Shown: positions 7,931 through 27,241, counted from the stretch's first letter. The stretch is DNA of 32,000 nucleotides from Candidatus Electrothrix sp. GW3-4 (GCF_037902255.1 NZ_CP147990.1:660001-692000), one strand, 5' to 3'. Notes: generated from the letters alone by a model not told the origin. A program made the numbers and translations.

Positions 7931-7940
7931 AACCAGAGGC

Positions 7941-8150: not shown

Positions 8151-8191
8151 GTCAAATCAAATCTGATCTACTACAATCAATGAGAGAAAGC

Positions 8192-10958: not shown

Positions 10959-11042
10959 GATCGTTCTCCGGTTGAGGTGGAAAGGTTCCGGGTTGGAAAA
11001 CTGAATATCATTAACGTTTACAGGAACGGGTTATGCAGGGGC

Positions 11043-11441: not shown

Positions 11442-11651
11442 GATTGTTCTCCGGTTGAGGTGGGTAAGGGGTGGGACACGGGAACAGATGATTATCTCAT
11501 CTCTCTAAAACGAGGGGTTAGTTTTGTCAAGATTTTTTTACGGGGCGTTGCATTGGAAGAGGTTCAAGGGGGGCTGTTCAATTGGCAAAACATGCAGGGA
11601 TGTTCCCTGCAAACATCCCATGATCTTTTTTCTCCCTATCCACGCAGACTT

Positions 11652-11680
11652 TTGCATCCTCCTGAGGAATAGGGTAGAGT
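11652..11680 (+). promoter_or_regulatory. Sigma70-like promoter module TTGCAT-N17-TAGAGT (one of three homologous copies)
   Basis: TTGCAT 11652-11657, a 17-nt spacer, then TAGAGT 11675-11680, followed by GGCA. The flanking ~55 nt are homologous to 18478-18530 and 17366-17420. It lies about 130 nt upstream of the 242-aa ORF. Confidence 0.45.
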
Positions 11681-11811
11681 GGCAGCGAGAATTTTTTGGA
11701 TTTGGGCTTTGATGTATGTCTGCCACCGCTGCATAAGAGGGAACAAGTACAGCCATAATCCGGCTCCCTCAATGGATGAGGGATAAATATCTTTGTTTGG
11801 AGTAAGGAAAA

Positions 11812-12540: not shown

Positions 12541-12642
12541 CAGGTTGATGCGCCTCTCTTGCAGCAATCCTTTCGGTGCAATGAGAGGGGCATGCCGAGG
12601 CATGAGCCTGCCTCCTTTCATCCTGCCTTATGTCAGATTATG

Positions 12643-13716
12643 TCAGAGTCGGATATCGAGAATATCCAGTAATCTGCCACCGTAATCATTCCTGGTCATC
12701 TCCTTCAGGGCGGCATAATCGTTCACCCGGATGCTGAGGCTGCTGACTGCCGAGTCCGCAAAGCCCGGCAGGGTGCATCCGCCATTCTCACGCACCGGCA
12801 CGGCAGTGCCTGTCCTTCCCTTTTTCTCCATATCCAGCAAACTGAAGAGCAGCACCTTCTTGCGGTGGTCAAGGATGACCTGAATGCGGAGCATCTCGTC
12901 CGCTGTCACCGTGCCGCCAATGACCGAGACATACGGGCTGGCTGCTTTGCCGGTGAGGATGCCGTGCTCCGGTGGATCAGGCTGACCAAAGCCGCTTAAG
13001 GTGAGGGGGCTGCGCAGCATCTGTCGGCAGGTGCCGGTGCGCAATGTGCCATGCTCGCTGTAGCGGGCCGAGACTGAGACCGTGTACTCGTTATTCCACG
13101 GCTGACTCTGGGCAGGGATGTCGGGTATGAGCATGATACTGCTGTTCTCAATCATGCCAAAGCGGCTCTGGACGGCACTGCCGCTCTCGGTGCCCTTGAT
13201 GAGACACTGACTGCCAGGTTGTTGCGGGTCAAAGGAAAAATTGCGCCCCTTGAGCTGGAGCAGGCCATCGGGATTGAGGACATTATTGAGGCCGAGCAGC
13301 GCATCGCGGGCCGTGCTGATCACTGGTTTCTTTTCGCGCACAGGCAGGCGTTCTGTACGGGCGGATTGACGGATAGCCCTGGTAAAGGGCGGTGAGATGC
13401 GCACATTGACATTCAGGCATTGATCAATCGACGGCAGCGGGTCGTTCGGGTGGTCCAGCCTGCCGCTGAAGGAGACAAACCAGCTCCAGCTCCCCTCCTT
13501 GGTCACCTGCTCACCGTTGAGGAGTCGTGCCTGCACGGCCTTGTCCTCGGCCCGAAGGATGGTCAGGATGTCAGCTTTGCTGAAGTTGGGGTGCCGCAGG
13601 GCAATGTCATCAGCGATATCCTCAATGCCTGCTGATCTGCGAGGCACGGCAAGGATGCGCCAGGACGGAGGAGTGGTCATTGCGTTTACTTCGGGTCGCC
13701 ATTGGATTGTCTGCAT
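12643..13716 (-). CDS. HU-CCDC81-like N-terminal DNA-binding domain plus DUF4469-like C-terminal domain protein
   Basis: 357 aa with SD AAGGAGG upstream. The N-terminal IEDIADDIALRHPNFSKADILTILRAEDKAVQARLLNGEQVTKEGSWSWFVSFSGRL resembles HU-like bacterial CCDC81 domains. The C-terminal LQLKGRNFSFDP...NEYTVSVSARYSEHGTLRTG resembles DUF4469. Both assignments are from memory of those families. Confidence 0.5.
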   Translation of the reverse strand: MQTIQWRPEVNAMTTPPSWRILAVPRRSAGIEDIADDIALRHPNFSKADILTILRAEDKAVQARLLNGEQVTKEGSWSWFVSFSGRLDHPNDPLPSIDQCLNVNVRISPPFTRAIRQSARTERLPVREKKPVISTARDALLGLNNVLNPDGLLQLKGRNFSFDPQQPGSQCLIKGTESGSAVQSRFGMIENSSIMLIPDIPAQSQPWNNEYTVSVSARYSEHGTLRTGTCRQMLRSPLTLSGFGQPDPPEHGILTGKAASPYVSVIGGTVTADEMLRIQVILDHRKKVLLFSLLDMEKKGRTGTAVPVRENGGCTLPGFADSAVSSLSIRVNDYAALKEMTRNDYGGRLLDILDIRL

Positions 13717-13821
13717 GAGGGGCCTCCTTTTCTACGTATTTGGTTGAGATAGTGGAACGAGCTGATAATGCTTTATCGTAAAGCTGAAAAAGGAGGGTGT
13801 CAACCAGTTTGCAAGGAAGGG

Positions 13822-13929
13822 TTCCACTATAGTGGAAAGGATGGTTGCACTGTAGTGGAACGTAGGTTTGCACTATAGTGGAAAGGGTGGTTCCACTATA
13901 GTGTGAAGGGGGGGTGGACTATGGTGAAA
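13822..13929. repeat. Five tandem 23-bp iterons, each centred on the palindrome TTCCACTATAGTGGAA
   Basis: 16-bp cores start at 13822, 13845, 13868, 13891 and 13914, an exact 23-bp period. The cores are TTCCACTATAGTGGAA (perfect palindrome), TTGCACTGTAGTGGAA, TTGCACTATAGTGGAA, TTCCACTATAGTGTGA and GTGGACTATGGTGAAA. The array lies between the DUF3368 stop (14027) and the DUF4469-type gene start (13716). Confidence 0.85.
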
Positions 13930-14026
13930 GGGAGTGAGGAAAGACAATGGTTGCGTTATAACTTTGTTCTTATCAGGCTGGGAAGGGTACTGTGGAAAAG
14001 GAACAGCGTCAGGGGTAAGGAAGGGC

Positions 14027-14500
14027 TTAGGTGAGGTCAGTTTCGCTTTCGCCGCATTGCTGTATGAGTCGTTCAATAAGTCGCGGATGATAGCGCAGTC
14101 CATTATGCCGCATATCTCTCACGCACTCGGTAAACGAGGTGATCAGTCCTTTCTTTTTGGCGTTCAGAAGAATACCGAGAGTACCGATAACGGACAGGTC
14201 GAGATACTCTGCTACATTCCTGCCAATCTTTTCATCAATAATAACCAGGTCGGCTTTTTGCTGACATGCGGTATGGATGGTATGCTTTTCCCCTTTGTCG
14301 AGTTCCAGAAGTACATGGCTGCTGATTTCAGGAGATGAGGGGATGGTTTTTATCCACGGCAGCGAAGTCAGCTCAGGAACCGCTACCGGGCCGCCCGCTC
14401 TGCATTCTTCTATGACTTTGGTGAAAAGCTGTGGCAGCAGGTCAAGCTGATTGATGGAAGTAAGAGCGATAAAGGGCGTAGTGTTGGAAAAGACAATCAC
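14027..14500 (-). CDS. DUF3368 (PIN-like) putative toxin
   Basis: 157 aa: MIVFSNTTPFIALTSINQLDLLPQLF...LDKGEKHTIHTACQQKADLVIIDEKIGRNVAEYLDLSVIGTLGILLNAKKKGLI matches the DUF3368 PIN-like family. It overlaps the upstream UPF0175 gene by 4 bp (ATGA). Confidence 0.8.
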   Translation of the reverse strand: MIVFSNTTPFIALTSINQLDLLPQLFTKVIEECRAGGPVAVPELTSLPWIKTIPSSPEISSHVLLELDKGEKHTIHTACQQKADLVIIDEKIGRNVAEYLDLSVIGTLGILLNAKKKGLITSFTECVRDMRHNGLRYHPRLIERLIQQCGESETDLT

Positions 14501-14751
14501 AGCAGCATCGTCTCCCGGCGAAAGTCATCTGCCGAGTCCTCAAGCAGTTCTGCGCCCTGTTCCATTGCTTTGAACAAGAAAGTTGCTCTGGGTATATCAA
14601 GCCATTTGGCCGCCATGCCGGAAGATATCTTCCCTTTTCTGAATAAGGCGATTGCTGCCTCAAGTTTGACGATCTCCGCCAGGCTTTCGGCGTTAACGTG
14701 AAGCCCCAGCAGCAGTTCTGTGGGACATTGTATTTTCATGGTGTTTTCCAT
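14497..14751 (-). CDS. UPF0175 family putative antitoxin
   Basis: 84 aa. The AIALFRKGKISSGMAAKWLDIPRATFL segment is typical of UPF0175 partners of DUF3368 proteins. It is translationally coupled to the downstream gene. Confidence 0.75.
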   Translation of the reverse strand: MENTMKIQCPTELLLGLHVNAESLAEIVKLEAAIALFRKGKISSGMAAKWLDIPRATFLFKAMEQGAELLEDSADDFRRETMLL

Positions 14752-14954
14752 TCGCTCGCCTCCAGTATCGGACGGGTTGTATTGCTTATATAATGAAAGT
14801 AGAGGGAAGTGGCTATAGTGTCAAGGTTTTTCTCTCTTTCCTTGTGTCGCTATACTTCCTGCGCATCTTGCCGGAAAACTGTTGCCAAGGCCTGCCGGAC
14901 AGTGTAGCCTTTCTTTATGAGATACCTAATCAATAGTACTGAGGAGAAACCGGT

Positions 14955-15281
14955 ATGAAGGCACTCCGCACTCTGAAGCAGGTGCAGAATGGGCAGGTTC
15001 ACCTGCATCTGCCCAAACAGTTCTGGGGACAGCAGGTTGAAATCATTGTGCTCTCCGGGGCGCAGCAGGAAGGGGGTGAGGAGGCCGGAGCCTCTCTGCG
15101 CGGCTGTTTGCGGCAGTACGCGAATCCATCCCTGGCTGCGCAGGAAGAGGGGGCTTGGGGCACTGCGGTGGAGGAAGCAGGATGGCGAGAACTGACTCCG
15201 TGCCGCTATGTCTCCTGCGTACCTTGCCGCGCTGCCCGTACCTGTGCCAATTCCTCGCGCCATTTCTCCAATAAAGGATAG
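14955..15281 (+). CDS. Orphan AbrB/SpoVT-like antitoxin-type ORF; 3' end uncertain
   Basis: The N-terminus MKALRTLKQVQNGQVHLHLPKQFWGQQVEIIVL resembles small swapped-hairpin antitoxins. SD GAGGAGAAACCGGT-ATG. No cognate toxin follows. The last ~75 nt overlap the convergent STAND gene 3' end, so the true end or intactness is doubtful. Confidence 0.35.
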   Translation: MKALRTLKQVQNGQVHLHLPKQFWGQQVEIIVLSGAQQEGGEEAGASLRGCLRQYANPSLAAQEEGAWGTAVEEAGWRELTPCRYVSCVPCRAARTCANSSRHFSNKG

Positions 15282-17272
15282 TCGATCCAATCTGCAATTT
15301 GCACAGCTACTGTAAGGTATTTCTCTGCTTGAACAAGGTTAAGTATATCTTTATAGGTAAGCCCAATATTAAAGTATGTCACTGCTTCTCCGACCCTATC
15401 ACCAGACTGCCGCCGTAGAACCAAGGCTTGTTCTAAATATTCCATGGCCTTGTTATGATTTTCTTGAGAATGGTATATCGCAGCGATGTTGTTCAAGGTT
15501 TCTCCTGCTCCAATCTTGTCACCAGCCGCCCATCTGATAGGAAGAGCCTCCTCTAAATATACCAAGGCTATCTCCCATTCATCTTGGTGCATATAAACGT
15601 TGGCAATATTATTCAAGGTCGTGCCTTCCCCTTCTTGACTACGGATTTCCCGCCATATTTTTAGACTCTGCTTGAAATGGTGCAAGGCCAAGTCGTATCC
15701 TTCTTGAAGGGTGTGACTTTTTGCTATATTATTCAATGTTGCACCTTCTCCCTGCTTGTCACCTAACTCACGATATATTGGCAGGCTTTTCTCATACCAT
15801 TCTAAGGCTTTCTTATGATCACCGCATCTCCCACAAGTGTACCCAAGACTGTTCAAGCACCAAGCTTCATCTCTACGACCGCCTATGTGTCGGGCAGCAG
15901 TTAAAGCTATTTTTAAGGCGATTTGTCGATCCACCCAATGTCCCTGCCTGTCTAAATACCTTGAGATTAAGTAAACAAAATCTGACACTTCATCCCACAG
16001 CTCATTATTTAGACAAGCCTCAAGGAAGCGCAAGTGGTGTCCCCGCTCATCATTGGTGCAAACATATCCCTTTCTTCCGGGTAGCATATTAGAAACACAG
16101 AACCATTTATAATGGTCAGATAGCAATAGCAAGTTCTTCCTGCTCAAAGCCAGCTCAGTTCGGGCATAGGTATGCACCAACGCATGGCTTATCTGCCAGC
16201 GTTCCTCTTGCTTCTCCAGCAAACCATAATTAACCAGCTCACCCAACGCCTTCCGTGCCCGGCGTTCATCATCCTCAAGCACAGCCGCCACCGGTTCACG
16301 GGCTATCGGCGCAAAGGCCAAGGTACCTGCTACGCCCAGCGCAAGGCGGGCATCCTCGCTCACCTGCGCCACGCTACGCCGCAGCAGCAAGGCGGCATTC
16401 TCCTCCTGATGCGTACCGTCACCCAGTTCCTTGAACGGCTCTTTTTCCAACCACTTCAAGTAATCTGCCGCGCTCTCACCCGTGCTGCTGAGATACCGGC
16501 CCGCAATGCGCAAACCCACGGGCCAGCCATCCAATATCTTGCAGATGCCCTGCACGCTTGCATCATCCGTCGTTGTAGGGGCACAGCGTGCTGTGCCCTT
16601 ACTATGTAGCCGGAAGACCTCAGCTGCGGGCTGCTCCTCCAGCGGGGTCAGGTCAAGCCGGAAGCCCTGGGCATCGTCCCGCTTCCGACTGGTGATCAGC
16701 ACCCCGCAGGTACTGCGCAGATCAAGCACGGCCTTGAGGTCATCCGCCTCCTCGGTTCCGTCCAAGATGATCAATGCCTTCCTGCCTGAGAGCACCTGCC
16801 GCACTGTGCTGGCAAGGCCCGTCTTTGCCTCCACCTGAAAGGCTACGCAAATGGCTTGCAGGGCCTGCTCTGTTTGGGGATGTCCATAGAAGCTATGAAA
16901 GACTATGCCGTCCGGGAAGCGGGCTTTCTCCAGCTTATCCACTGCCTGCGCCGCCAAGGCTGACTTTCCCATGCCGCCCGGCCCGCACACAGCAACGACC
17001 TTGCCGGGTTGGAGCTGCTCCAATAAATCGGCAAGCTCCTTATCTCTGCCGAGGAAGCAGGCATCAAGGGGCTGGAGTTGACGGGGAATAACGGGCGGGG
17101 GAGTAGGCGGCGGCTGGTGATAATGAATGCCACCCTCCACATGGGCATGATTGCCCAGCACACCAATTTGTGCATTCTGGGCATTTATCTGCTTACCGAT
17201 AGCCTCATTCCCTTGGCCGATATTCTGCTCACCATCGCCACTGTGGTTGAAGGTATTGTCAGTCGTTCCCAT
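15206..17272 (-). CDS. STAND NTPase: NB-ARC-type P-loop domain plus C-terminal TPR array, short low-complexity N-terminus
   Basis: Walker A VAVCGPGGMGKSALA, Walker B ALIILDGTEEADD, and the GxP motif ILDGWPVGLRIAG (compare GLPLAL of NB-ARC). At least six TPR units carry LNNIA(K/N/A) signatures. I prefer the ATG at 17272 (MGTTDNTF...) because the track start at 17374 falls inside the TTGCAT promoter box of the hrpA-5' relic. Confidence 0.85.
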   Translation of the reverse strand: MGTTDNTFNHSGDGEQNIGQGNEAIGKQINAQNAQIGVLGNHAHVEGGIHYHQPPPTPPPVIPRQLQPLDACFLGRDKELADLLEQLQPGKVVAVCGPGGMGKSALAAQAVDKLEKARFPDGIVFHSFYGHPQTEQALQAICVAFQVEAKTGLASTVRQVLSGRKALIILDGTEEADDLKAVLDLRSTCGVLITSRKRDDAQGFRLDLTPLEEQPAAEVFRLHSKGTARCAPTTTDDASVQGICKILDGWPVGLRIAGRYLSSTGESAADYLKWLEKEPFKELGDGTHQEENAALLLRRSVAQVSEDARLALGVAGTLAFAPIAREPVAAVLEDDERRARKALGELVNYGLLEKQEERWQISHALVHTYARTELALSRKNLLLLSDHYKWFCVSNMLPGRKGYVCTNDERGHHLRFLEACLNNELWDEVSDFVYLISRYLDRQGHWVDRQIALKIALTAARHIGGRRDEAWCLNSLGYTCGRCGDHKKALEWYEKSLPIYRELGDKQGEGATLNNIAKSHTLQEGYDLALHHFKQSLKIWREIRSQEGEGTTLNNIANVYMHQDEWEIALVYLEEALPIRWAAGDKIGAGETLNNIAAIYHSQENHNKAMEYLEQALVLRRQSGDRVGEAVTYFNIGLTYKDILNLVQAEKYLTVAVQIADWIDYPLLEKWREELAQVRAARQGTQET

Positions 17273-17364
17273 AGATGATCTTGTTTCCTTTGATTGAGAC
17301 CCCAGGTATCTTTTTATTATCCTAATCGTATAGTCTGTTTTATAAAAAAGGGCGAATGAAAAGG

Positions 17365-17617
17365 TTTTTTGCATCCTTGATGTGAATCAGGTAGAGTGAT
17401 AGCCAGAACGGTTTCTTTGTCAAATTAACTGGACGTAATGTCACTAACACCTATGCAGCTTAACTACCCTACGCAGCTTCCCATCACCGACCGCAAGGAC
17501 GAGATCGTCCAGGCCATTCAGGATAATCAGGTTATCGTTATTGCAGGCGATACCGGCTCCGGCAAGACAACCCAGCTCCCCAAGATGTGCCTGGAATATA
17601 TAACCAGCCTGGGGTAA
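17365..17617 (+). pseudogene. Relic of hrpA promoter plus first 48 codons (diverged duplicate of 18477-18708)
   Basis: Promoter TTGCAT (17369-17374)-N17-TAGAGT (17392-17397). ATG at 17453 gives MQLNYPTQLPITDRKDEIVQAIQDNQVIVIAGDTGSGKTTQLPKMCLE, after which homology ends (YITSLG, stop at 17615-17617). By hand alignment there are about 10 differences in 144 coding nt versus the real hrpA, mostly synonymous or conservative. Confidence 0.85.
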
Positions 17618-17735
17618 CACCTTGGGCCGGGGATATCTATACAGCTTGTCGCACAGACATCTTGACAATATGCATACCGAAAGATATCCTGAAGTATATT
17701 AATTATATCCTCAAAACTCAAAACAATACGACCTC

Positions 17736-18044
17736 ATGTTTAATCTGCAACTGCAAGTCGATCCAAAAACGGAACAACGCCTGAAAGCAATTCTAGCGCA
17801 TATGCAAAATGAAGAAACCTTTGCGCAAAACATCATTGCCTACCAAATTGCTGAACTTCAAAAAAGTCTGCTCAATATCCGGCTTGATTTAAAAGGCTTT
17901 GAAAATAAATATAAGCAGTCGAGTGAAAAATTCTACCGCCTGTATGAACAAGGACAGACCGATGACAGCGAAGATACGATGTTGTGGGCAGGTCTTTACG
18001 AAATGCTGCGTAATAATGAAGAGAGGCTGCGGGAACTCGCATGA
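17736..18044 (+). CDS. Putative antitoxin/partner of the DUF6516 protein (coiled-coil, 102 aa)
   Basis: 102-aa ORF overlapping the downstream gene by 4 bp (ATGA at 18041). It has helical, charged composition and no obvious SD. Confidence 0.5.
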   Translation: MFNLQLQVDPKTEQRLKAILAHMQNEETFAQNIIAYQIAELQKSLLNIRLDLKGFENKYKQSSEKFYRLYEQGQTDDSEDTMLWAGLYEMLRNNEERLRELA

Positions 18045-18415
18045 TTGACCTCTACTTCCGGAATGTTGAACATATTATCCAGGAGTTTCCAAATATCCGC
18101 AGCTCCGCTCTCAAGAAAAAACAGTATAACGCCAAACAGGGATATATCAGCGGCTCTGTCCATTTTGACTCTGGAAGCCGTCTTGAGTTTATGGAACTCA
18201 AAGACACAGACAGATCAGCAAAGATAAAATATCGCTATCAGTATATGGATCAACAGAATACCTGTCTCTTCCGATACGATAATGCACCACATCATCCCGA
18301 GATAACAACTCATCCTCACCATAAGCATAATGGGGAGGAGATTATCGCAAGTTGTGAGCCGACGTTATTTGATATTTTACTTGAGATTGCCGAACAAGAA
18401 CGTGAAGACGAGTAG
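18041..18415 (+). CDS. DUF6516 / TumE-like toxin-family protein
   Basis: 124 aa with YRYQYMDQQNTCLFRYDNAPHHPEITTHPHHKH, the RYDNAPHH...FPHHKH signature I associate with DUF6516 (annotated as the TumE toxin family). Confidence 0.6.
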   Translation: MIDLYFRNVEHIIQEFPNIRSSALKKKQYNAKQGYISGSVHFDSGSRLEFMELKDTDRSAKIKYRYQYMDQQNTCLFRYDNAPHHPEITTHPHHKHNGEEIIASCEPTLFDILLEIAEQEREDE

Positions 18416-18480
18416 AGAAATCAGGGGGAAATCGCTCTTCTCAAAAGCCTCTCCTCTCACCCTCAGGTAAGTCCCCACCT

Positions 18481-18509
18481 TTGCATCCTCCCTGGTAATC
18501 GGGTAAAGT
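18481..18509 (+). promoter_or_regulatory. Sigma70-like promoter of hrpA (TTGCAT-N17-TAAAGT)
   Basis: TTGCAT 18481-18486, a 17-nt spacer, then TAAAGT 18504-18509. The same architecture occurs in the relic at 17369-17397 and at 11652-11680. This places the track start codon (18508) upstream of the likely TSS. Confidence 0.45.
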
Positions 18510-18564
18510 GGCAACCAGAAACGTTTTCCAAGAAAAACAATTGTGCGTAACGCCACTAACACCT

Positions 18565-21500
18565 ATGCAGCTCAACTACCCTACACAGCTCCCCATCACC
18601 GACCGCAAGGACGAGATCGTCCAGGCCGTTCGGGAACATCAGGTCATCGTTATTGCAGGCGATACCGGGTCCGGCAAGACAACCCAGCTCCCCAAGATGT
18701 GCCTGGAGGCAGGCCGGGCAGGGGAGGGGACCATGATCGGCTGTACCCAGCCCCGCCGTATTGCCGCCCTGTCAGTCACCGAGCGGGTGCAGGAGGAGCT
18801 GGGGCAGGTCCGGACGGTGGGGTCCAAGATTCGCTTTCAGGATCGCACCGGCCCGAAAACCCGGATCAAGTTCATGACCGACGGGATTCTTCTGGCCGAG
18901 ACCCGGGGCGACCGCGATCTGCGGGCCTACGACACCCTGATCATTGACGAGGCCCATGAGCGCAGCCTGAACATCGACTTTCTGCTCGGCTATCTCCATC
19001 AATTGCTGGCCCGCCGTCAGGACCTCAAGCTGATCATTGCCTCGGCCACCATTGATACCGAGAAATTCAGTAAGCATTTTCACGATGCCCCGATTATCCA
19101 GGTGGAAGGACGCACCTATCCGGTCACGGTGGAATACTGCCCCCCGGACAACGATGACGATGAAAGCAATCAGGATATCGACCGGCTGGTTGCTGACCAG
19201 ATTGTCAGGCTTATGGCGCGGCGCGGTGGGGATATCCTGGCCTTTCTCCCCACGGAACGGGACATCCTGGATACGGTGGCCTTGCTGCGTAAGGAGCTGG
19301 CTGACCGGGCCCTGATTCTGCCCCTGTTCGGACGGCTCCAGGGCGGGGAGCAGCGGCGTATTTTTCGTTCTGCGCAGCGGCGCAAGATCATTGTGGCCAC
19401 CAATGTGGCAGAGACCTCCATCACTGTGCCGGGCATAGAATGCGTGGTGGACACTGGCTTGGCGCGGATCGCCCATTATAATGTGCGGGCCGGGACCACC
19501 CATCTGCCCGTGACCAGGATTGCCAGGGCCAGTTGCGACCAGCGAGCCGGGCGTTGTGGTCGGGTAGGGCCAGGGCGTTGTATCCGCCTCTACAGCGAGG
19601 AGGATTATCTTGCCCGCGATGAGTTCACCCTGCCGGAGATCCAGCGTTCCAATCTGGCTGAGGTTATTCTCCAGATGCTCAGTCTTCGCCTGCCTGAGCC
19701 GCGCAATTTTCCCTTTATCGATCCGCCAGCACCCAGAGCGGTCAATGACGGCTTTCGTATTCTTCGGGAACTGGGGGCCCTTGACAGCGAGCACCAACTC
19801 ACCGAGCGGGGCCGGATCATGGCTCGCCTGCCCCTGGACCCGCGCATCTCCCGGATGATTATCGAAGGCGCGGAACTGGGCGTGCTCCGGGAAACCACGA
19901 TCATTGCCGCAGCCCTGGCTATTCAGGACCCCCGTGTCCAGCCGCCGGATAAGCTGGAAAAGGCCCGGCAGGCCCACCGGGCCTTCAATTATCCCGGCTC
20001 GGATGTCATGACCCTGGTGAATATGTGGGATACCTGTCGAGGTGAAGCCCTGCCTTCGCCCGGTTCGTCTGATAAAGGGCAGAGTCGCCAGGATGATAAA
20101 GAGCAGACACGGGAAGCTGCCCCTACACCATCAGCCGGTCAGTTGCGCCGTTTTTGCGAGGCCAATTTCTGCTCCTGGCAGCGGATGCGGGAATGGTTTG
20201 ATATTCATGAGCAGATCCTCCGTATCCTCAAGCAGCATAAGGAATTTGTCTCGGCCTTGGATCGTATGGCCGAATCGTCGTCTTTGCAGAATAATGTAGG
20301 GACACGGCATGCCGTGTCCCTACCGGAATCGCAGGATCGTAGGGGCGAACCTTGTGATCGCCCGTTACGTTCCCCATCAAACCGTAGGGACGAACCCCTG
20401 TGTTCGCCCGGTTTATCTGATAAAGGGCAGACACGGGGATCTGCCCCTACAGCACCAACCCTGGTTCATCAGGCCCTGACCGCAGGATTCCTGCGCAACA
20501 TTGCCCTGCGCAAGGAAAAGAATACCTATCAGATCTCCGGCAACCGGGAGGCCATGCTCTTTCCCGGTTCCGGCCTGTATAATAAGGGGGGACAGTGGAT
20601 CGTGGCAGCGGATTTTGTCCATACCTCGCAGCTCTTTGCCCGCATGGCCGCCACGATTGAGGTGGACTGGCTGGAACGCCTCGGCGGTGATCTCTGCAAA
20701 CGCTCCTACTCGGACCCGCATTGGCAGAAAAAGTCCGGGCAGGTCATTGCCCTGGAAAAGGTCTCCCTGTTCGGTTTGGTGATTGCTGCGGATCGGCGGG
20801 TGAACTACGGGCGCATCAGCAAGAAAACAGCAGCGGAAGCCAAGGAGATTTTTATCCGGGAGGCTTTGATCCCCGGTGAACTCAAGGGCAAATATCCCTT
20901 TCTTGAGCATAATCTGGCCCTGGCTCGGCAACAGGAAGAGCTGGAGGAACGCCTGCGTAGGCGCGGCATCATGACTGATGAGCAGGTTCTGTACGAGTTC
21001 TATGATCAGCGGCTGGAACTGGTGTATGACCGCTTCACCCTGAACCGCTTTTTGAGCAGGAAACGCAAGCAGGCCAAGCCCGGTGAAGAAGCGGACGGCT
21101 TTCTCAGGATGACAGAGGAAGATCTTTGCCAAAGCCAACCGGAAAGCGATGAGCTGTATCGCTTTCCGAAAACCCTGACCACACCTCAAGGCGAGTTGCG
21201 TCTTTCGTATACCTTCCACCCTGGTCAGGATGACGACGGCGTGACTGTGGATATCCCGGTCTCCTGCTGTCCGGCCCTGTCACCGAATCTCTTTGAGTGG
21301 CTGGTGCCCGGTCTGCTGGAGGACAAGGTGGCGGCCTTGCTCAAGGGGCTGCCCAAACGCCTGCGCAAGCTCTTTGTCCCTTTGCCGGACACGGCGGCCC
21401 TGCTCATGGACGGTATGGATCTCTACCAAGGTTCCCTGTACCCGGCCCTGGAGCGTTTTCTTCTCCGTCATTTTCAGGTCAGGGTGACACGGGCGGACTG

Positions 21501-22623
21501 GCAATTGGAGAATCTCCCCCTCCACCTGCGTATGCGTTTCCGTCTCTGCGACGAGCAGGGAAAGGCTCTGTATTACACGCGTGATTTCCATAAGCTTGCT
21601 CTACATTGCGGTTCAATGCGGCAGACAATGCAGGGAGGGCAGATGCGGAAGGTCGAAGACCTGCCAGAAAGAAAGAATATCCAGGTATGGGATTTTGCCG
21701 TGGCTCCGCGCCCTCTGCCTGCACGGGACGAGCATAACCGGGTCACGGGCCTCTACTATCCGGCTTTGTTCCTGGGATTGAGCAAGGGGCAGGAGCAGCA
21801 GCTTTGCCTGAGGTATATTGCCGACCCTGAGCAGGCAGTTCGAGAGAACAGAAAGGGGCTTCGTTTCCTCTATGGGCAGTATTTCAGCAAGGAGTTTAAG
21901 GCGGTTGCCAAGGAATGCAAGGCAGCGGTGGCCGGGCATACCGCCTCCTGGCTCTCTCTTGGGATGAAGGCCGGGGCCGGAGAAACCAGGGACCTGTTGC
22001 TCAACTGTATTGTGGACAGCCTGTTTCAGATTAGCGGGGACCTACCGAACAAGACTGGCTTTGAGCTGATCCTTGACGATCTCCGGGAGCAGGGAGTGAC
22101 CCGACTGGCGAGGGAGCAGCTCAATCAGGTGCTGGATCTGCTGGCGGAACGCCGCAAGACTCAGGTCGCCCTGACGCAAAGTAAACAACGGGCCGGGAAA
22201 AGTCGGAGTGCGGATCAGGCCCGCTTTGCCGAATATGAGGACTTACTTGAGAGACTGGTACCTGCGGATTTCCTTGATCGATTTTCTCCAGAAGAGGCCG
22301 GTGACCGAAAGCGGTACCTTCAGGCCCTGGCCAAGCGGGTAGAACGGGCCGAGCATAGTCCGCATAAGGATGCGGATAAGGTCAAGAGGGTTCAGCCCTT
22401 TGCTGAGCATCTCCGTCAGCTGGATCGGAAAGAGGCGGAGCAGAAAGCAGGCGGGAGCATTTCGGCTCCCTGCCGGGAGGCTGTGGTCCTGTATCGCCGC
22501 ATGGTGGAGGAGTTCCGTATATCTGTCTTTGCCCCGGAAATCGGTACAGCCATGCCAGTCTCAGAAAAACGGCTGAAGCAGCAATGGAAGCTGGTGGAGG
22601 AGAGCTGCAGGAGGGTGGAATAA
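18565..22623 (+). CDS. hrpA: ATP-dependent RNA helicase HrpA (DEAH-box, with C-terminal DUF3418-type region)
   Basis: GDTGSGKTTQLPK (motif I), IIDEAHERS (DEAH), TNVAETSITVPG and QRAGRCGRV (motif VI), HA2/OB regions, and a long C-terminal extension as in E. coli HrpA. I prefer the ATG at 18565 (MQLNYPTQLPITDRKDEIV), which is conserved with the relic copy, over the track start at 18508. Confidence 0.95.
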   Translation: MQLNYPTQLPITDRKDEIVQAVREHQVIVIAGDTGSGKTTQLPKMCLEAGRAGEGTMIGCTQPRRIAALSVTERVQEELGQVRTVGSKIRFQDRTGPKTRIKFMTDGILLAETRGDRDLRAYDTLIIDEAHERSLNIDFLLGYLHQLLARRQDLKLIIASATIDTEKFSKHFHDAPIIQVEGRTYPVTVEYCPPDNDDDESNQDIDRLVADQIVRLMARRGGDILAFLPTERDILDTVALLRKELADRALILPLFGRLQGGEQRRIFRSAQRRKIIVATNVAETSITVPGIECVVDTGLARIAHYNVRAGTTHLPVTRIARASCDQRAGRCGRVGPGRCIRLYSEEDYLARDEFTLPEIQRSNLAEVILQMLSLRLPEPRNFPFIDPPAPRAVNDGFRILRELGALDSEHQLTERGRIMARLPLDPRISRMIIEGAELGVLRETTIIAAALAIQDPRVQPPDKLEKARQAHRAFNYPGSDVMTLVNMWDTCRGEALPSPGSSDKGQSRQDDKEQTREAAPTPSAGQLRRFCEANFCSWQRMREWFDIHEQILRILKQHKEFVSALDRMAESSSLQNNVGTRHAVSLPESQDRRGEPCDRPLRSPSNRRDEPLCSPGLSDKGQTRGSAPTAPTLVHQALTAGFLRNIALRKEKNTYQISGNREAMLFPGSGLYNKGGQWIVAADFVHTSQLFARMAATIEVDWLERLGGDLCKRSYSDPHWQKKSGQVIALEKVSLFGLVIAADRRVNYGRISKKTAAEAKEIFIREALIPGELKGKYPFLEHNLALARQQEELEERLRRRGIMTDEQVLYEFYDQRLELVYDRFTLNRFLSRKRKQAKPGEEADGFLRMTEEDLCQSQPESDELYRFPKTLTTPQGELRLSYTFHPGQDDDGVTVDIPVSCCPALSPNLFEWLVPGLLEDKVAALLKGLPKRLRKLFVPLPDTAALLMDGMDLYQGSLYPALERFLLRHFQVRVTRADWQLENLPLHLRMRFRLCDEQGKALYYTRDFHKLALHCGSMRQTMQGGQMRKVEDLPERKNIQVWDFAVAPRPLPARDEHNRVTGLYYPALFLGLSKGQEQQLCLRYIADPEQAVRENRKGLRFLYGQYFSKEFKAVAKECKAAVAGHTASWLSLGMKAGAGETRDLLLNCIVDSLFQISGDLPNKTGFELILDDLREQGVTRLAREQLNQVLDLLAERRKTQVALTQSKQRAGKSRSADQARFAEYEDLLERLVPADFLDRFSPEEAGDRKRYLQALAKRVERAEHSPHKDADKVKRVQPFAEHLRQLDRKEAEQKAGGSISAPCREAVVLYRRMVEEFRISVFAPEIGTAMPVSEKRLKQQWKLVEESCRRVE
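20296..20452. repeat. Cluster of REP-like GTAGGG-initiated palindromic units lying in-frame inside hrpA
   Basis: GTAGGGACACGGCATGCCGTGTCCCTAC (20296-20323, a perfect 28-nt palindrome). GTAGGGGCGAaccttgtgaTCGCCCGTTAC (20339-20368). GTAGGGACGAACccctgtGTTCGCCCGG (20384-20411). Then TTTATCTGATAAAGGGCAGAcacggggATCTGCCCCTAC. A related unit (TTCGCCCGGTTCGTCTGATAAAGGGCAGA...GCTGCCCCTAC) lies at about 20055-20126. Confidence 0.8.
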
Positions 22624-22724
22624 TGGAAAGGAACGACCTGGTAAAACCAGATAAAATCAGGAGGATCTATTAAACAGGTCGTTTGATAATGCGGAACCTT
22701 TGTACCAAAATAATATTGCTGATT

Positions 22725-23612
22725 TTACAAAAAACCTATTTTTAGCCTTTCTTTTGGCCATGCCCACGCTGTCAGATTGCTCATAAATGCTCCTGCAAAA
22801 CACCCGCAATTTGAACAATCGGCATTATTCCCAAAGCATCGTCTCGTGTTCCATGAAGCATCAAAATGACGTGCCTCATCGCCCCAGTAACACCAGCCTC
22901 GATGGTCGGTTTTTTCATACCAGCTGATCATTGAATCATTCAGCAAAAAGTCGTTCGGATAGCGCGATTTCACTCTTCGAAGCTCCTGAAGAATCTCTCT
23001 ACGGAGACTCTTTGCAGGAACTATGGGGTCGGTATCTTTGTCATCCCCGGTTTTAGACATGTAGATATTGCAGACAACGCCTGAAAAATTGTGTTCCTGA
23101 GAAGCCCGTACCAGCTGTTCAAGTTCAGTGTAATTTTGGCCGTTGACTGTCATATTGATGATGATCCGCTTATCACCGGAATAGTTTTTCAGAATTTTAG
23201 AAAAAACGCCTTGGCCTCGTATTTTGTCATTGGTTTTCTCGGTGCCCTCAACAGATACATACAGAGGATGTTTGAATTCCAGAGGAATTTTTATAGTTCC
23301 ATTTGTGATAATATACACAAAGGGGAAAATTTTATCCGCCAACATCAACACATCTGGTCTTAACGCTGGTTCACCACCTACTAACAAAACGAGGCGAACT
23401 CCAGACTGATAGAGATCATGCAACCGTTCTTCCCATTGTGTTATAGGGGTAACCTCTTTTGAAAAATTTTTTTTCCCATAAAAATGATAACAATGCTCAC
23501 ACCTGAGATTACAGGCATCAGTGACATCAAACTCAGCCATAAACTTGGTTCCAAATACTTTCCGTTTCAGCTCAAAGAAGCCAAGTTGCGTTAACTTTAT
23601 GAATTTATCCAC
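22725..23612 (-). CDS. Radical SAM enzyme, HpnH-like architecture (N-terminal helix, CxxxCxxC, Cys-rich C-terminal domain)
   Basis: 295 aa. CNLRCEHC radical SAM motif at residues 34-41, GGEPAL, and a C-terminal WCYWG...RRCFGNNADCSNCGC resembling the DUF3463/SPASM-like tail of HpnH-type enzymes (from memory). GTG start with weak SD. AT-rich codon usage contrasts with hrpA. Confidence 0.8.
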   Translation of the reverse strand: MDKFIKLTQLGFFELKRKVFGTKFMAEFDVTDACNLRCEHCYHFYGKKNFSKEVTPITQWEERLHDLYQSGVRLVLLVGGEPALRPDVLMLADKIFPFVYIITNGTIKIPLEFKHPLYVSVEGTEKTNDKIRGQGVFSKILKNYSGDKRIIINMTVNGQNYTELEQLVRASQEHNFSGVVCNIYMSKTGDDKDTDPIVPAKSLRREILQELRRVKSRYPNDFLLNDSMISWYEKTDHRGWCYWGDEARHFDASWNTRRCFGNNADCSNCGCFAGAFMSNLTAWAWPKERLKIGFL

Positions 23613-23823
23613 TTTTATTTGGTTGTTTTATTGGTTACATTGATGACCAAGCTTCATGAGCATACCTGTTACTTTGCGTGTGCAGTGCGCGTTTGGTGCA
23701 AGCCGCTGCCCCTGTTGATAAAGGGGTGGCGAGTTCATCTCAATACCCGCACCTTGTCAAAGGTATAGCTGACTTTTCGACTGATTTCAATTGAATTCAT
23801 GTAACCTGTATTAACGTTTGACG

Positions 23824-23940
23824 GAGCAATTTCCGGTCTCGCTCTTTGCCCCGGAAATTGGCACGGCCATGCCTGTCTCTGAGAAACGGCTGAAGGAGCA
23901 ATGGCAGCAGGTGGAGGAGAGTTGTCGGCGGGTGGAGTGA
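23824..23940 (+). pseudogene. Relic of the hrpA 3' end (last 38 codons plus stop), diverged copy
   Basis: Translates EQFPVSLFAPEIGTAMPVSEKRLKEQWQQVEESCRRVE*, compared with the real EEFRISVFAPEIGTAMPVSEKRLKQQWKLVEESCRRVE* (22507-22623). My hand alignment gives about 26 mismatches in 117 nt, many at third codon positions. Confidence 0.85.
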
Positions 23941-24054
23941 GGTTGCCCGTTTGAAAAAAATATCCAGAAACGTGTAGATGTTGATTTGTTTTTTGAAGTA
24001 TTCTGTTAGCTGCTGTTCAATCCGTCTATAATCTCATCAACGATTACATCCATC

Positions 24055-25205
24055 ATGATCAAAAAACTCGTTGTTTCCAATTTCCGCAGTCTTGGTCCTG
24101 ACATTCATTTTGAACCGGGCAAGCTTTCTTTTTTATAGGACCGAACGGATCAGGAAAGTCAAACATTCTTGATGTGCTCTCTTTTGTGAGGGATTCGGTT
24201 ATGCAGGGCCTACCTGCCGCTATCACCCATAGACGTGGTATCGACAGTGTACGGAGACGCAGTCATGGTCGTCCTTTTGATGTACACATAGAATTTCAGC
24301 TTCTTATTGATCAGCAGCATGTAACGTATGAATTTATTATTACCGGTGATCGCCTCGAAGAGTATAGGGTAAAGACAGAAAAGGCGATTATGTACGGACC
24401 GAAGGGCGAGGAAAAGGTCTCATTTATCAGAAATGGTCATGAGTGGGATGGGCCGGAAGGAGTGGCGCCCTTTATGGATGAGCAATCCTTGGCCTTGACG
24501 GCACTGGGAGGAACAAAACAGTTCAAACCCTTGGTTGATTTTCTTTCAGGTCTAACCGTTTATTCTATTTTTCCGGATACCCTTCGGATTCCTCAGCGTT
24601 TTGATTCAAGCCATCCACTTAAAGAGCATGGAGAGAACTGGGTATCTATTTTACGGGAATTGGTGAAAGAAAAGTACGCCAAAGATGATATTGTTACAGG
24701 ATTGAGGAAGCTCACCGGAGATATTGAGGATGTCCGAGTGGCGAGCGCAGCAGGATATCTGATAGCTGAGTTTAAGCAGCAGGTCAAAGGACAAAAGGCG
24801 AAACGTTGGTTTGACGCAGCTCAGCAGTCGGATGGAACGCTTAGGGTTGCAGGATTATTGACGGCCTTGGTGCAAACACCGGCTCTTCCGGTCATCGGTG
24901 TGGAGGAGCCAGAACTTACCGTTCATCCCGGAGCTCTGCCCATGCTCTATGATTATCTGCGGCAGGCCAGCGAGATGTCGCAGGTCTTTGTTACTACGCA
25001 TAGTCCGATAATCCTTGATGTTGTTGATGTTGAAAACGATGTTGTTTTTGTCGTCAATCGGGTGGATGGTAAAACAGATGTAAAAAGGATGGCGGATACC
25101 CAGCTGGAACCCGTTCGCAAGAGCTTGTTGCGATTAGGGGATCTCTTTATGTCAGGTGACTTGCAACTTTCTCTTTTTGACGATGATACCCCCTGGAGGG
25201 AATGA
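24055..25205 (+). CDS. ABC/SMC-type AAA ATPase (AAA_15/AAA_21, OLD-N-terminal-like), interrupted by a -1 frameshift at a T6 run
   Basis: ATG at 24055 gives MIKKLVVSNFRSLGPDIHFEPGKLSFL, then TAG at 24136-24138. The next frame continues from 24135 as IGPNGSGKSNILDVLSFVRDS... (Walker A) and joins the listed ORF 24174..25205. The C-terminus has LPVIGVEEPELTVHPG (Walker B / D-loop) and VTTHSP (H-loop). One extra T in the 24129-24134 run would restore a ~383-aa protein. A perfect TATAAT lies at 24026-24031. Confidence 0.8.
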
Positions 25206-25822
25206 TTGTGGCTGGCAAAAAGGGGTATCTGCTTGTGGAAGGACACGGGGAAGTGGAGGCTGCCCAGAATTTTATTACCCGCCTGAGTCACGATATCGGG
25301 ATATACGACATTCCCTGGAGTAAACCCTTGCGTTGGACCAATCTGCATCAATGGCAAGGGCATAAATCGGGAGGGGTAATGGCAGGTGCTGAATTTATTC
25401 GCACAAAGCCAGATGCTGGGGCATTGTTGATTCTTCGAGATGAGGATAATCAATGTCCCAAGGAGCTTGCGCCGCAGATCGCAAGGCAATTGCGAATGCT
25501 TAAACTTCCCTTTCCAACGGCTTATGTGTTGTTGCATCCAGAATATGAAGTGCTCTTTCTTCCTTGTCTCGAGCAGATGGGGTTTCCGTCTTGGGACAGG
25601 GATTCGTGGGAGGCTCGGCGAGGAATTAAAGAATGGCTTTCCGGGAAGTTGCCCAAAGGACGTTCGTACAAGCCCACTGTGCAGCAGTTTGCTTTAACCC
25701 GGAAACTTGACTTCTCGATGCTGCGAGTAGCAGACGTGCCCTGTTTCGGTAGCTTGGAAAGAGGACTTCGGTTTCTATCAGATCACTCAGGCCAAACCGG
25801 TAAAGTATACCCGGTAGAGTGA
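25202..25822 (+). CDS. DUF4276-like protein with Toprim-like Glu ... DxD arrangement
   Basis: 206 aa, overlapping the ATPase gene by 4 bp (ATGA). LLVEGHGEVEA near the N-terminus and LILRDEDNQCP about 70 residues later match my recollection of DUF4276. They also match the catalytic Glu and DxD layout of Toprim/OLD-type nuclease domains; that part is inference. Confidence 0.65.
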   Translation: MIVAGKKGYLLVEGHGEVEAAQNFITRLSHDIGIYDIPWSKPLRWTNLHQWQGHKSGGVMAGAEFIRTKPDAGALLILRDEDNQCPKELAPQIARQLRMLKLPFPTAYVLLHPEYEVLFLPCLEQMGFPSWDRDSWEARRGIKEWLSGKLPKGRSYKPTVQQFALTRKLDFSMLRVADVPCFGSLERGLRFLSDHSGQTGKVYPVE

Positions 25823-25861
25823 GTCGTTCCCTACACTGCTCGCATAGTGTGTTTTAAACAA

Positions 25862-25892
25862 GCTGAAATGGCAATGGAAGCTGGTGAAGTGA
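25862..25892 (+). other. Second, short relic of the hrpA 3' end
   Basis: GCTGAAATGGCAATGGAAGCTGGTGAAGTGA versus hrpA GCTGAAGCAGCAATGGAAGCTGGTGGAGGAG (22574-22604). The two share a 16-nt exact core, GCAATGGAAGCTGGTG, plus GCTGAA. Confidence 0.55.
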
Positions 25893-25946
25893 GGAATGTC
25901 TCCCTCGGTCCAGCTCTCCTATCCTGTGGGTGTTAGTGGGCGAATC

Positions 25947-26699
25947 TCAGATACTTTCTATCGCGGCAAACTCCGGTTCATGAAGTGGGATGACATAATC
26001 CGCCATGTCCCGAACCTTAAGCATGAGGTCATAGGCGGCATAGGTATCGGTGCTGGTACCCGGCGGAATGACCTCCATCTCCATTGCCTTGACCTGTAAC
26101 GGTGGCTCGAAGTTTTCTCGGATGACGCAAAAGCCGGTGATGGCGGTTTTACCGCGTTCCGTGTCGATGAATACGGTCATGCCGCCCGGTGTATGGGCCG
26201 GGGTGTGCATCACTGAGATGCCTGGAAAAAGCTCCTGATCCGTGCTCACGGTTCTGATCTGTCCGGCCTCGCGGATTTCATAGATAAAGTCCTCCACATA
26301 GCGGTAATCCAGGGGGTGGGGATTATTGATGGTCTCCAGCTCTTTTTCGTGGATATAGAACACCGCATTACTACATTTATAATCGTTTTCGCAATGGTCA
26401 GTATGCAGATGGGTATGGATGACCACGTCAATATCTTCCGGTTTAAGTCCGTATCTCGCTAACCCCTCCTCAAGGGTGTAAATCTTCCCGCCGATGGCCT
26501 TTTCCCGGTCTTCGGAGATGACCGGATGCATTTCACCTGTGTCAATCAGGATCTTTTTTTCACCACCTGCAATATACCAGCTGTAGATCGGGATGGTGTA
26601 AGGTGTGCCGTAGTCATACTGATAGGTCATCATGCCTTTGTCAAAGACCTTGGTGCCCACCACAATGGGGTGAATGGTATATTTGTTCATTGTGTTCAT
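25947..26699 (-). CDS. MBL-fold metallo-hydrolase (N-acyl homoserine lactonase-like family)
   Basis: HTHLHTDHCEN (HxHxDH zinc motif). MNKYTIHPIVVGT...ILIDTG is an N-terminus typical of AiiA-like lactonase-family proteins. I prefer the start at 26699 or 26690 (MNTMNKY) over the track start at 26765. Confidence 0.85.
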   Translation of the reverse strand: MNTMNKYTIHPIVVGTKVFDKGMMTYQYDYGTPYTIPIYSWYIAGGEKKILIDTGEMHPVISEDREKAIGGKIYTLEEGLARYGLKPEDIDVVIHTHLHTDHCENDYKCSNAVFYIHEKELETINNPHPLDYRYVEDFIYEIREAGQIRTVSTDQELFPGISVMHTPAHTPGGMTVFIDTERGKTAITGFCVIRENFEPPLQVKAMEMEVIPPGTSTDTYAAYDLMLKVRDMADYVIPLHEPEFAAIESI

Positions 26700-26887
26700 T
26701 TGGTTTGAAAGAATGGATTTGTAAGTTTGAGTGTCAAGCTTGATATAAAAAAGGATAAAAAGCAAGCGATTAACCGGAAGCGATCTCTTTTTTTGACTGG
26801 GGAGACTATGGGAAAAAGGGAGAACGTGGTATATTATTTGTCAGAAGTCTTCTTCTGATCGTCAACGTCTTCTCTTGAGGTGATATT

Positions 26888-27241
26888 ATGAAGATCGTTT
26901 TTGTCTATAATGCCGACAGCGGCAAGATCAATACGTTGCTTGATATTGGTCATAAGATCCTCCGTCCCGACAGCTATTCCTGCAACCTTTGCTCGTTGAC
27001 CCATGGTGCTTTTAGTGAGAAAGAAGAGTGGCGGAAGTACCGGGAAGCGAGTCAACATGAGCTGGAATTTCTCCATAAGGATGAATTTGTGGAAAAGTAT
27101 AGAGAGGACAAAGAATACACCTATCCTGTTATACTGAAGATGAGTGAGGGTGGGAAGAGCCTGGAGGTGTTGCTGGCGACAGAGGAAATTAATGCCCTGG
27201 CTGGCCTTGAAGAATTAGTGAGTAGGTTGCCCAAGAAATAA
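26888..27241 (+). CDS. Conserved hypothetical small protein (117 aa) with CxxC (CNLCSLTHG)
   Basis: ORF with SD GAGGTGAT, followed by a strong terminator. No family confidently recognised. Confidence 0.6.
   Translation: MKIVFVYNADSGKINTLLDIGHKILRPDSYSCNLCSLTHGAFSEKEEWRKYREASQHELEFLHKDEFVEKYREDKEYTYPVILKMSEGGKSLEVLLATEEINALAGLEELVSRLPKK

Follow-up and report, generated by a model that had tools for sequence, protein, structure and literature searches.

Partial copies of both hrpA ends border defence-type cassettes in cable bacteria

How defence genes arrive at chromosomal sites that hold no mobile-element genes is an open question, and the locus described here, that of hrpA in a Candidatus (Ca.) Electrothrix cable bacterium, bears on it. 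The sequence analysed, called the window throughout, is a stretch of 32,000 nucleotides (nt) from Ca. Electrothrix sp. GW3-4 (GCF_037902255.1 NZ_CP147990.1:660001-692000; coordinates count from the window's first letter), in which an intact hrpA is bordered by diverged partial copies of its own ends, hereafter relics, with small gene cassettes in between. We consider it fairly probable that in cable bacteria (Ca. Electrothrix and relatives) hrpA acts as a recombination hotspot at which serial 'terminal displacement' adds cargo with no dedicated recombinase, a mechanism that we infer from the structures left behind. Each arrival left a dated scar, so that the order of events, their break points and the donor alleles can be read from the sequence.

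Relics of hrpA and the cassettes between them

On the 5' side, 17368-17595 repeats 18480-18707 at 85.6% identity over 229 nt (E = 3e-69), a match returned by repeat search, pairwise alignment and self-BLASTN, and the repeat spans the hrpA promoter, the 5' untranslated region (UTR) and codons 1-48. A first reading made from the sequence alone (the sequence-only reading) had described just this repeat at 17365-17597 with about 10 differences in 144 coding nt; the count holds at 10 of 144 (93.1% identity), which amounts to six synonymous and four non-synonymous codons, the latter clustered at codons 22-25, the same codons that vary among functional alleles. Homology breaks off sharply after ATGTGCCTGGA, the end of motif I. 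The hrpA promoter is of the sigma-70 type (TTGCAT, 17 nt, TAGAGT/TAAAGT), and in every genome the conserved upstream block begins 1-2 nt before the -35 hexamer, regardless of the left neighbour. In the relic both hexamers and their spacing are kept, the spacer and UTR have drifted, and the UTR is a hybrid, resident-like towards its 5' side and element-like towards its 3' side. Judging by these promoter elements, the relic should transcribe into the adjoining M44 gene pair while hrpA retains its own copy.

On the 3' side, self-BLASTN aligned 22526-22619 with 23843-23936 (86%, E = 3e-25). The solid part of this copy (3' relic a) is its last 102 nt, which are 83% identical to the window's own hrpA end and 95% identical to the functional end of Ca. 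Electrothrix (E.) marina (L008; loci of relatives carry L numbers); compared with the resident end, 17 of 102 nt differ and 4 of 33 residues are changed. The earlier proposal that the last 38 codons plus stop recur at 23824-23940 was thus sound for about 33 codons plus stop and slightly generous beyond them, as the 35-48 nt upstream of the solid part show only ~50% identity. A 31-nt trace, read at first as 25862-25892, proved significant at 25856-25891 (3' relic b; z = 7.8, 0 of 500 shuffles, Smith-Waterman shuffle test), and its authenticity is supported by the ~13 nt after its stop (GGAATGTCTCCC), which match the sequence behind the hrpA stop of E. scaldis. No further hrpA relic was found after the metallo-beta-lactamase-fold (MBL) gene. 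All the relics first proposed were therefore recovered when the window was aligned with itself, and the 3' arrangement is reproduced at 100% in two Logan run assemblies (L141 and L142), which may not be independent of the window's data.

The cargo had been read as a DUF6516/TumE-like pair, a lone radical SAM gene and an ATPase with a DUF4276 protein, and profile searches agree, calling PDC-M44A and B, rSAM, and HEC-01A and B. PADLOC models matched M44A (1.7e-9) and M44B (1.5e-21) in cassette 1 and HEC-01A (AAA_21 ATPase, 7e-77) and HEC-01B (DUF4276, 1.9e-23) in cassette 3. For PDC-M44, HEC-01 and Upx, the last of which occurs in a relative, every component gene was found and matches its model, and on these profile matches all three are PADLOC candidate defence systems. 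The radical SAM family of cassette 2 is common in archaea and Thermodesulfovibrionales, and the cassette is missing from L005, L151, L153, L154 and L155. HEC-01A, which lies in the older cassette, is probably a pseudogene in the window: behind codon 26, a T-run carries a -1 frameshift that gives GKLSFL and a stop, versus GKLSFFIGPNGSGKS in L005 (window 24055-24175), and splits the first 26 codons from the Walker-A-containing remainder, with identical sequence in L141 and L142.

Table 1 Features of the hrpA locus, in window coordinates.
Feature	Position	Strand	Remarks
Probable oldest 5' relic	11606..11691	+	third hrpA promoter copy 11651-11687 with left context; 5/37 mismatches vs clade consensus
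5.7-kb block between promoter copies	11812..17374		g_11812; HU-like gene 12643-13716; DUF3368/UPF0175 toxin-antitoxin pair 14027-14751; g_14850; STAND NB-ARC/TPR NTPase gene 15206-17374 (-)
5' relic of hrpA: promoter, UTR, codons 1-48	17365..17597	+	-35 TTGCAT 17369-17374, 17-nt spacer, -10 TAGAGT 17392-17397; codons 1-48 at 17453-17596; stop at 17617
Cassette 1: PDC-M44A, TumE/PDC-M44B	17598..18476	+	M44A 17736-18044; M44B 18041-18415; own promoter-like site at 17662-17690
Functional hrpA promoter and 5' UTR	18477..18564	+	-35 18481-18486; -10 18504-18509
Intact hrpA	18565..22623	+	1352 aa; DEAD, Helicase_C, HA2, OB_NTP_bind, DUF3418; allele strongly mosaic
Cassette 2: lone radical SAM gene	22624..23838	-	coding sequence 22725-23612; profile-based domain call
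3' relic a: last 33 codons and stop of an E. marina-like hrpA allele	23839..23940	+	95% to L008; weaker similarity leftward to ~23805
Cassette 3: HEC-01A, HEC-01B/DUF4276	23941..25855	+	80-nt spacer; HEC-01A from ATG 24055 to 25205, with -1 frameshift after codon 26; HEC-01B 25202-25822
3' relic b: decayed hrpA-end trace	25856..25925	+	~36 nt (25856-25891), own stop 25889-25891, then native hrpA-downstream sequence
MBL gene	25947..26765	-	found in this genome only; no relic; between old hrpA end and conserved downstream gene
117-aa gene, conserved right flank of the hotspot	26888..27241	+	directly after hrpA in empty-site genomes; acs, then nitrogenase-like gene beyond

Farther upstream, 11651-11687 is probably a third copy of the hrpA promoter: its left context matches the sequence to the left of the first copy in L147 (E = 3e-10 to L147 8450-8529), and the copy, upstream of g_11812, also occurs in E. 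scaldis (L151, 1985-2026) and L156. The 5.7-kb block that follows, syntenic in L001, L005, L130 and L151, may be the cargo of an older displacement that took in a donor's ordinary five-gene neighbourhood, a reading that we hold more loosely; alternatively, the third copy is a paralogous promoter and not a relic. Within the same block, the toxin-antitoxin (TA) pair of a DUF3368 (PIN-like) and a UPF0175 gene (13932-14836) is precisely missing in the close relative L080, where the flanks are 93-96% identical, and is another small presence/absence cassette upstream of hrpA.

Empty sites, other cargo and other alleles in relatives

The closest relative found, E. scaldis (L151; 93% identity in HrpA amino acids, 91% in hrpA nt), is empty on both sides, with the STAND gene abutting the hrpA promoter and a 117-aa gene 64 nt after hrpA, so that window positions 17598-18708 and 22624-26876 are insertions. 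The STAND gene directly precedes the hrpA promoter in L001, L005 and L130 as well as L151, and the 3' side is empty in E. aarhusensis (L153), L155 and E. scaldis, where hrpA directly precedes a 116-117-aa gene and then acs. Of the two empty sites that had been foreseen, the STAND gene followed by hrpA exists as described, but 'hrpA then MBL' does not; hrpA is followed by the 116-117-aa gene, and the MBL gene is itself inserted. In the window, the 5' relic adjoins the STAND gene, which is its ancestral context, and the empty sites are collinear with the relic and the 100 nt on its left side; this relic is therefore the resident copy, still where it was ancestrally, and the intact, promoter-proximal copy arrived with the cargo. 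Synteny beyond hrpA is poor, with pntAB, cbiK, g_26888 or others downstream.

Cargo at the hrpA site varies across genomes (rSAM/HEC-01/MBL, leucine-rich repeat (LRR)/HEC-01, a four-gene set, Upx, SWIM-MoxR), and the alternative cassettes that the sequence-only reading had suggested looking for were found in L012, L005, L154 and L147, each with a relic. L012 carries a single-gene Upx (1751 bits) followed by an 840-nt relic with an open frame. In L154, four-gene cargo is followed by a ~35-nt relic (z = 7.1, 0 of 500 shuffles) and then by the same spacer and HEC-01 as in the window. The hrpA end of L005 leads directly into a HEC-01 copy, like 3' relic a of the window, and then come a 75-nt relic, an LRR-gene remnant and a second HEC-01 (L152 is the same sequence as L005 and was not counted as replication). 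HEC-01 abuts native hrpA-downstream sequence ~8 nt past the stop in both L008 and L154, and no relic lies to its right. On the 5' side, L147 has a two-cassette array that reads promoter, UTR and 39 codons; HigB-HigA; ribosome-binding site (RBS), ATG and ~45 codons ending in a TAG stop; M44A-M44B; and promoter and hrpA. Its junction between relic and M44 is identical to that of the window except for a 10-nt indel. The HigBA cassette is decayed in L080, L104 and L155 to promoter, HigB stump, HigA and hrpA, the coding part of the relic having been deleted, and in L147, L080 and L155 this cargo lies inside the hrpA transcription unit. These loci form a decay series, from the stop codon in the L147 relic and the deleted relics of L080, L104 and L155 to the frameshifted HEC-01A and the eroded 3' relic b. 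Of 79 species-level hrpA loci scanned, only those of the cable-bacteria clade yielded relics, and none of the ~65 from other lineages did; the idea that hrpA is a hotspot for defence-type cassettes is thus borne out by varied cargo and empty sites, but for this clade only.

Relatives carry further genes of the conflict type next to hrpA. A SMODS and SLATT pair resembling a cyclic-oligonucleotide-based anti-phage signalling system (CBASS) lies directly upstream of hrpA in E. aarhusensis (L153 7802-9465), and a SWIM/DUF5691/MoxR-AAA cluster lies directly downstream of it in L147 (14577-20129). In L155, direct repeats of 136 nt (4863-4998 and 5995-6130, 91% identity) bracket BrnT and ParE toxin genes. 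L012 has the same architecture as hrpA at another gene, where a perfect 55-nt direct repeat (6566-6620 and 7417-7471), comprising the RBS, start and first 11 codons of an HU-like gene, brackets a two-gene PIN-like TA cassette; a further repeat pairs 6598-6698 with 7929-8029, and a 61-nt internal hrpA fragment (5473-5533) lies beside the 3' end of the HU-like gene. Together with the TA genes of L155, the HU-like gene hints that hrpA may be one of many such sites, which would point to a clade-wide tendency in repair or recombination.

The long relic of L012 differs from the intact end at 8% of sites, with proportions of synonymous and non-synonymous differences (pS and pN) of 0.249 and 0.029 (pN/pS = 0.12) and no stop in 280 codons, which argues for divergence between two working alleles and not for decay after duplication. 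Across the relics, divergence mainly at synonymous sites likewise indicates that they derive from other functional hrpA alleles, as had been proposed from the window; the closeness of 3' relic a to the E. marina allele agrees with this. The intact gene is itself a patchwork: identity between the window's hrpA and L005 is 96-98% at 18776-19076, 93-97% at 21049-21424 and 69-78% at 21574-22087, and the pattern is reversed against L001. The HU-like region is 96% identical to L080 and hrpA 87%. The window and L147 share a ~950-bp block of M44 genes, promoter, UTR and the first nine codons at 98.5% identity (98.4-98.7% for the M44 cargo), which drops to 84% inside the hrpA coding sequence. These jumps make homologous recombination with break points inside hrpA directly visible. 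We had taken the 98.5% block as a possible test of ends-out versus ends-in insertion, but it reflects a later exchange between two M44-bearing genomes and is uninformative on the original insertion.

The low-complexity, poorly alignable linker of hrpA also contains a perfect 28-nt palindrome (GTAGGGACACGGCATGCCGTGTCCCTAC) at 20296-20323, flanked by repeats (20044-20083/20392-20431 and 20094-20136/20418-20460). L005 keeps the hairpin, one A-T pair being replaced by G-C in compensatory fashion, and other cable-bacteria loci have different palindromes in the equivalent place; both Logan contigs end exactly at the palindrome.

The ends of these two contigs inside hrpA are one reason to consider that strain variants were mis-assembled, or that an in-situ tandem duplication followed by decay produced the copies; another is that most relatives are metagenome-assembled genomes, and a third that hrpA alleles of co-occurring strains differ by 10-20%, a divergence of the kind that can confuse assemblers. 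We regard artefact or local duplication as extremely improbable. An assembly artefact was rejected because two run-level assemblies show the identical arrangement and five further assemblies of separate projects, among them contigs of 107 kb and 192 kb, contain comparable structures around other cargo. In-situ duplication was rejected on account of the ancestral STAND left flank of the relic, which is shared with cassette-free relatives and which tandem duplication cannot yield, and by divergence of the synonymous, purifying-selection type; the cargo between the copies is, moreover, unique.

Routes by which cassettes may have entered hrpA

The structure seen at the locus, in which cargo separates an intact hrpA of imported terminus from the relic that is the resident gene's displaced end, would arise in two steps. 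DNA from a diverged strain, comprising hrpA and its donor neighbours, would pair with the resident hrpA, which would act as a one-sided homology anchor. Exchange or copying would then exit hrpA via the donor's gene terminus into the adjacent cargo, and closure would occur by an illegitimate join (microhomology or end-joining) inside the resident hrpA terminus. Together these steps would amount to homology-facilitated illegitimate recombination (HFIR), or to one-ended repair of a break in hrpA. Relic length marks the break point, and repeated events stack cassettes: the 3' order is rSAM and then HEC-01, and on the 5' side M44 was probably preceded by the 5.7-kb STAND block. Later, a cassette with hrpA sequence on both sides could be moved, swapped or deleted by ordinary RecA recombination, whatever lies beyond hrpA, the relic serving as the second homology arm. 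We favour an HFIR-type origin because alleles were imported, the gene is mosaic, break points vary and the old cargo looks like an ordinary donor neighbourhood. The sequence-only reading had spoken of elements that carry a replacement terminus and insert serially; serial cassettes with relics are what we find, but the 'elements' are probably not autonomous mobile elements; the oldest 5' event appears to have brought 5.7 kb of the donor's ordinary neighbourhood.

Ten insertion events were compared, each with a break point of its own. A relic or a copy of the promoter remains from eight of them (promoter +45; codon 39; codon 45-48; and -36, -35, -75, -102 and -840 on the 3' side) and none from the other two (stop +8 and about stop +35). 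One fixed crossover at -102, with the relics of L005, L008 and 3' relic b as decayed remnants, was unsupported by shuffle tests (L008, z = 1.3) and by the L005 relic, which starts at -75. Integrative islands at tRNA, tmRNA, guaA and prfC classically replace the 5' or 3' end of their target gene, tandem accretion at one site is known, and elements of the non-autonomous cis-mobilizable (CIME) type exist, so the cassettes could be remnants of, or mobilised in trans by, integrase elements that target hrpA and carry a replacement gene end. Both 5' break points do lie in or beside the most conserved stretch of the gene (motif I, codons 39 and 48), and several left contexts join the promoter at one nucleotide. 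We nevertheless consider a dedicated site-specific system decidedly unlikely because no recombinase was found, break points vary, cassette ends have no motif, some insertions lack any relic and nothing was found on viral contigs. As had been noted from the window, no integrase, recombinase or transposase lies by the junctions: neither Pfam scans of window open reading frames (ORFs) nor the Pfam hits precomputed for the gene calls of L147 and L151-L156 showed a recombinase or integrase in the 32-kb window or within ~20 kb of any relic-bearing locus examined, and the recombination enzymes nearest to the junctions are two DDE transposase genes (3136-5340). The ends of seven cassettes share no motif, core, terminal inverted repeat (TIR), inverted repeat or direct repeat (inverted-repeat z at most 1.4), and in a search for phage or satellite carriage neither hrpA relatives nor the hrpA promoter were found on IMG/VR viral contigs. 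Relics of ~35 to 840 nt, different in every event, also speak against a fixed core.

Several observations weigh against the favoured HFIR-type origin. The cassettes all end tidily, with complete genes, a flank of 22-225 nt and no partial neighbours, which random end-points would not predict; selection or later trimming has to be invoked, and selection for intact cargo may account for the tidiness but need not. M44 and four or five other left contexts join the promoter at one and the same nucleotide, which fits promoter constraint, again a sufficient but not a compelling explanation, and would be equally expected of a specific site. For no junction was the true donor recovered: homologues of rSAM and M44 (68-80%; Thermodesulfovibrionales, Electronema KV) share coding regions only and lie in unrelated contexts. 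HFIR is also rare in the species in which it has been measured (PMC5361080). Last, the donor- and resident-type tracts in the 5' copies fit a single crossover with a conversion tract, of the Campbell type, at least as well.

Under that alternative, a small circle with cargo and one hrpA fragment would enter hrpA by a single RecA crossover, duplicating the fragment around the cargo, and recombination between the repeats would regenerate the circle, giving a recombinase-free cassette life cycle. It yields exactly the structure found, and discrete circles, if they exist, would make the tidy boundaries natural. In L147, relic and intact copy alike are resident-type at nt 18-36 of the coding sequence, with donor-type sequence rightward in the former and leftward in the latter, the pattern predicted by a single crossover with a conversion tract, and the hybrid UTR of the window's 5' relic points the same way. 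Later gene conversion between the copies could, however, produce the same tracts, neither circles nor excision products were observed, an illegitimate event would still be required to make the first circle, homology of 36 or 45 nt is a very poor RecA substrate, and a 5.7-kb block of ordinary genes is odd cargo for a circle. We judge this route unlikely.

A related suggestion, also tentative and in our view improbable, is that the duplicated hrpA fragments act as portable homology arms and that a cassette flanked by them is a recombinase-free mobile unit. If so, RecA could install the cassette in any hrpA-bearing genome, whatever the neighbours, recombination between the repeats would excise it, and the duplicated host promoter would express 5' cargo; this would be a general, overlooked travel route for defence genes in poorly syntenic genomes. 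In a still bolder variant, a trans-acting enzyme might target hrpA.

The remainder of the window contains further repeats. The two DDE transposase genes (3136-4128 and 4153-5340, minus strand) form a tandem, 79% identical, and are adjoined by a 355-nt tandem duplication; these repeats occupy 3109-5145 and 5138-5849. A long tandem array with a period of ~70 nt and ~18 diverged copies occupies 6259-7558, within a region (5340-8192) that has no ORF of at least 100 aa, and 950-1044 recurs at 6061-6155 (82%). A 28-nt direct repeat (10953-10980 and 11436-11463, 96%) flanks a small gene at 11043-11441 (minus strand), one copy covering its start and 5' UTR. An ORF of 629 aa at 1097-2986 (minus strand) consists of internal repeats (several units of 100-350 nt, 64-85% identity) with weak DUF7144/DUF3659 matches only, and a c-di-GMP-I riboswitch at 8874-8952 (minus strand; 51.8 bits, E = 1.6e-7) lies upstream of a gene with a chemoreceptor zinc-binding (CZB) domain (8192-8665). 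There are no tRNA genes in the window.

Comparison with known systems

Integron arrays resemble the locus in their compact, promoter-proximal one- or two-gene cassettes stacked serially, with the newest by a fixed point, and hrpA 5' cargo is likewise readable from a resident promoter; unlike them, the hrpA locus has no intI, attI or attC-like hairpins, and neither an integrase nor an inverted-repeat signal was found at cassette ends. Transposons and insertion sequences differ too, as TIRs are lacking and the duplications, at ~35 to 840 nt, are not of fixed length. Integrative islands that restore the end of their target gene come nearer: examples are tRNA and tmRNA islands and SXT, which sits in the 5' end of prfC and supplies a new promoter and 5' coding end. 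As at hrpA, a new terminus, even a promoter, comes with the insert, the one it replaces persists as a direct repeat, and accretion is in tandem. Such islands depend on a fixed core site and on an integrase that the element encodes, whereas no tyrosine or serine recombinase was found in or beside the hrpA inserts, no crossover core is common to the insertions and relic lengths vary per event.

As a process, the events at hrpA are closest to the C-terminal displacement that builds arrays at rhs, at contact-dependent inhibition (CDI) loci with cdiA-CT/cdiI orphans, and at type VI secretion system (T6SS) effector-immunity loci of Vibrio cholerae (Jackson 2009 PMC2935791; Kirchberger 2017 PMC5361080). 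In both, DNA enters via a conserved part of the gene and replaces the gene end, the old end and its companion are pushed downstream, and arrays grow by repetition, all without a recombinase; T6SS and rhs arrays have been proposed to arise by HFIR and, after it, ordinary homologous recombination (PMC5361080). The hrpA loci show the corresponding pattern, an intact gene and then partial end copies split by imported genes (3' relics a and b, L005, L012 and L154; on the 5' side in the window and L147), and the resident and displaced ends are different, horizontally acquired alleles, as the pN/pS of L012 and the 95% versus 83% identity of 3' relic a indicate. The toxin loci displace variable, functional toxin ends with cognate immunity genes, whereas the ends displaced at hrpA are a conserved DUF3418 C-terminus or motif-I N-terminus and are functionless; hrpA encodes a housekeeping RNA helicase, the cargo consists of unrelated defence- or TA-type modules, and the 5' end, promoter included, is used besides the 3' end. 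Displacement, in the literature searched described only for toxin loci, can thus affect a housekeeping gene at either end and bring in TA modules and candidate anti-phage ones, at the 5' end duplicating a promoter able to drive the cargo. No paper was found that ties hrpA to defence hotspots or describes such displacement in cable bacteria, uncultured organisms whose mobile DNA is little studied and for whose genomics the locus provides a concrete hotspot. It also suggests how to search any genome for similar sites, namely for a conserved gene whose end is partly repeated a few kb away.

As a site, hrpA resembles the minimal mobile elements (MMEs) of Neisseria (PMC3787668) and core-gene-flanked hotspots (Oliveira 2017 PMC5635113), including the core defence hotspots of Pseudomonas aeruginosa (Johnson 2023 PMC10250203). 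Common to all are a fixed site by conserved genes, different whole-gene cassettes per strain, defence-rich cargo, no mobility genes, and a mosaic flanking gene with recombination through the flanks inferred; the hrpA site is empty on one or both sides in L151, L153 and L155, holds varied cargo elsewhere, and has a mosaic hrpA and no mobility genes. MMEs and core hotspots use two different conserved flanking genes as arms and have no duplicated ends, whereas at hrpA a duplicated stretch of the gene itself often provides the second arm.

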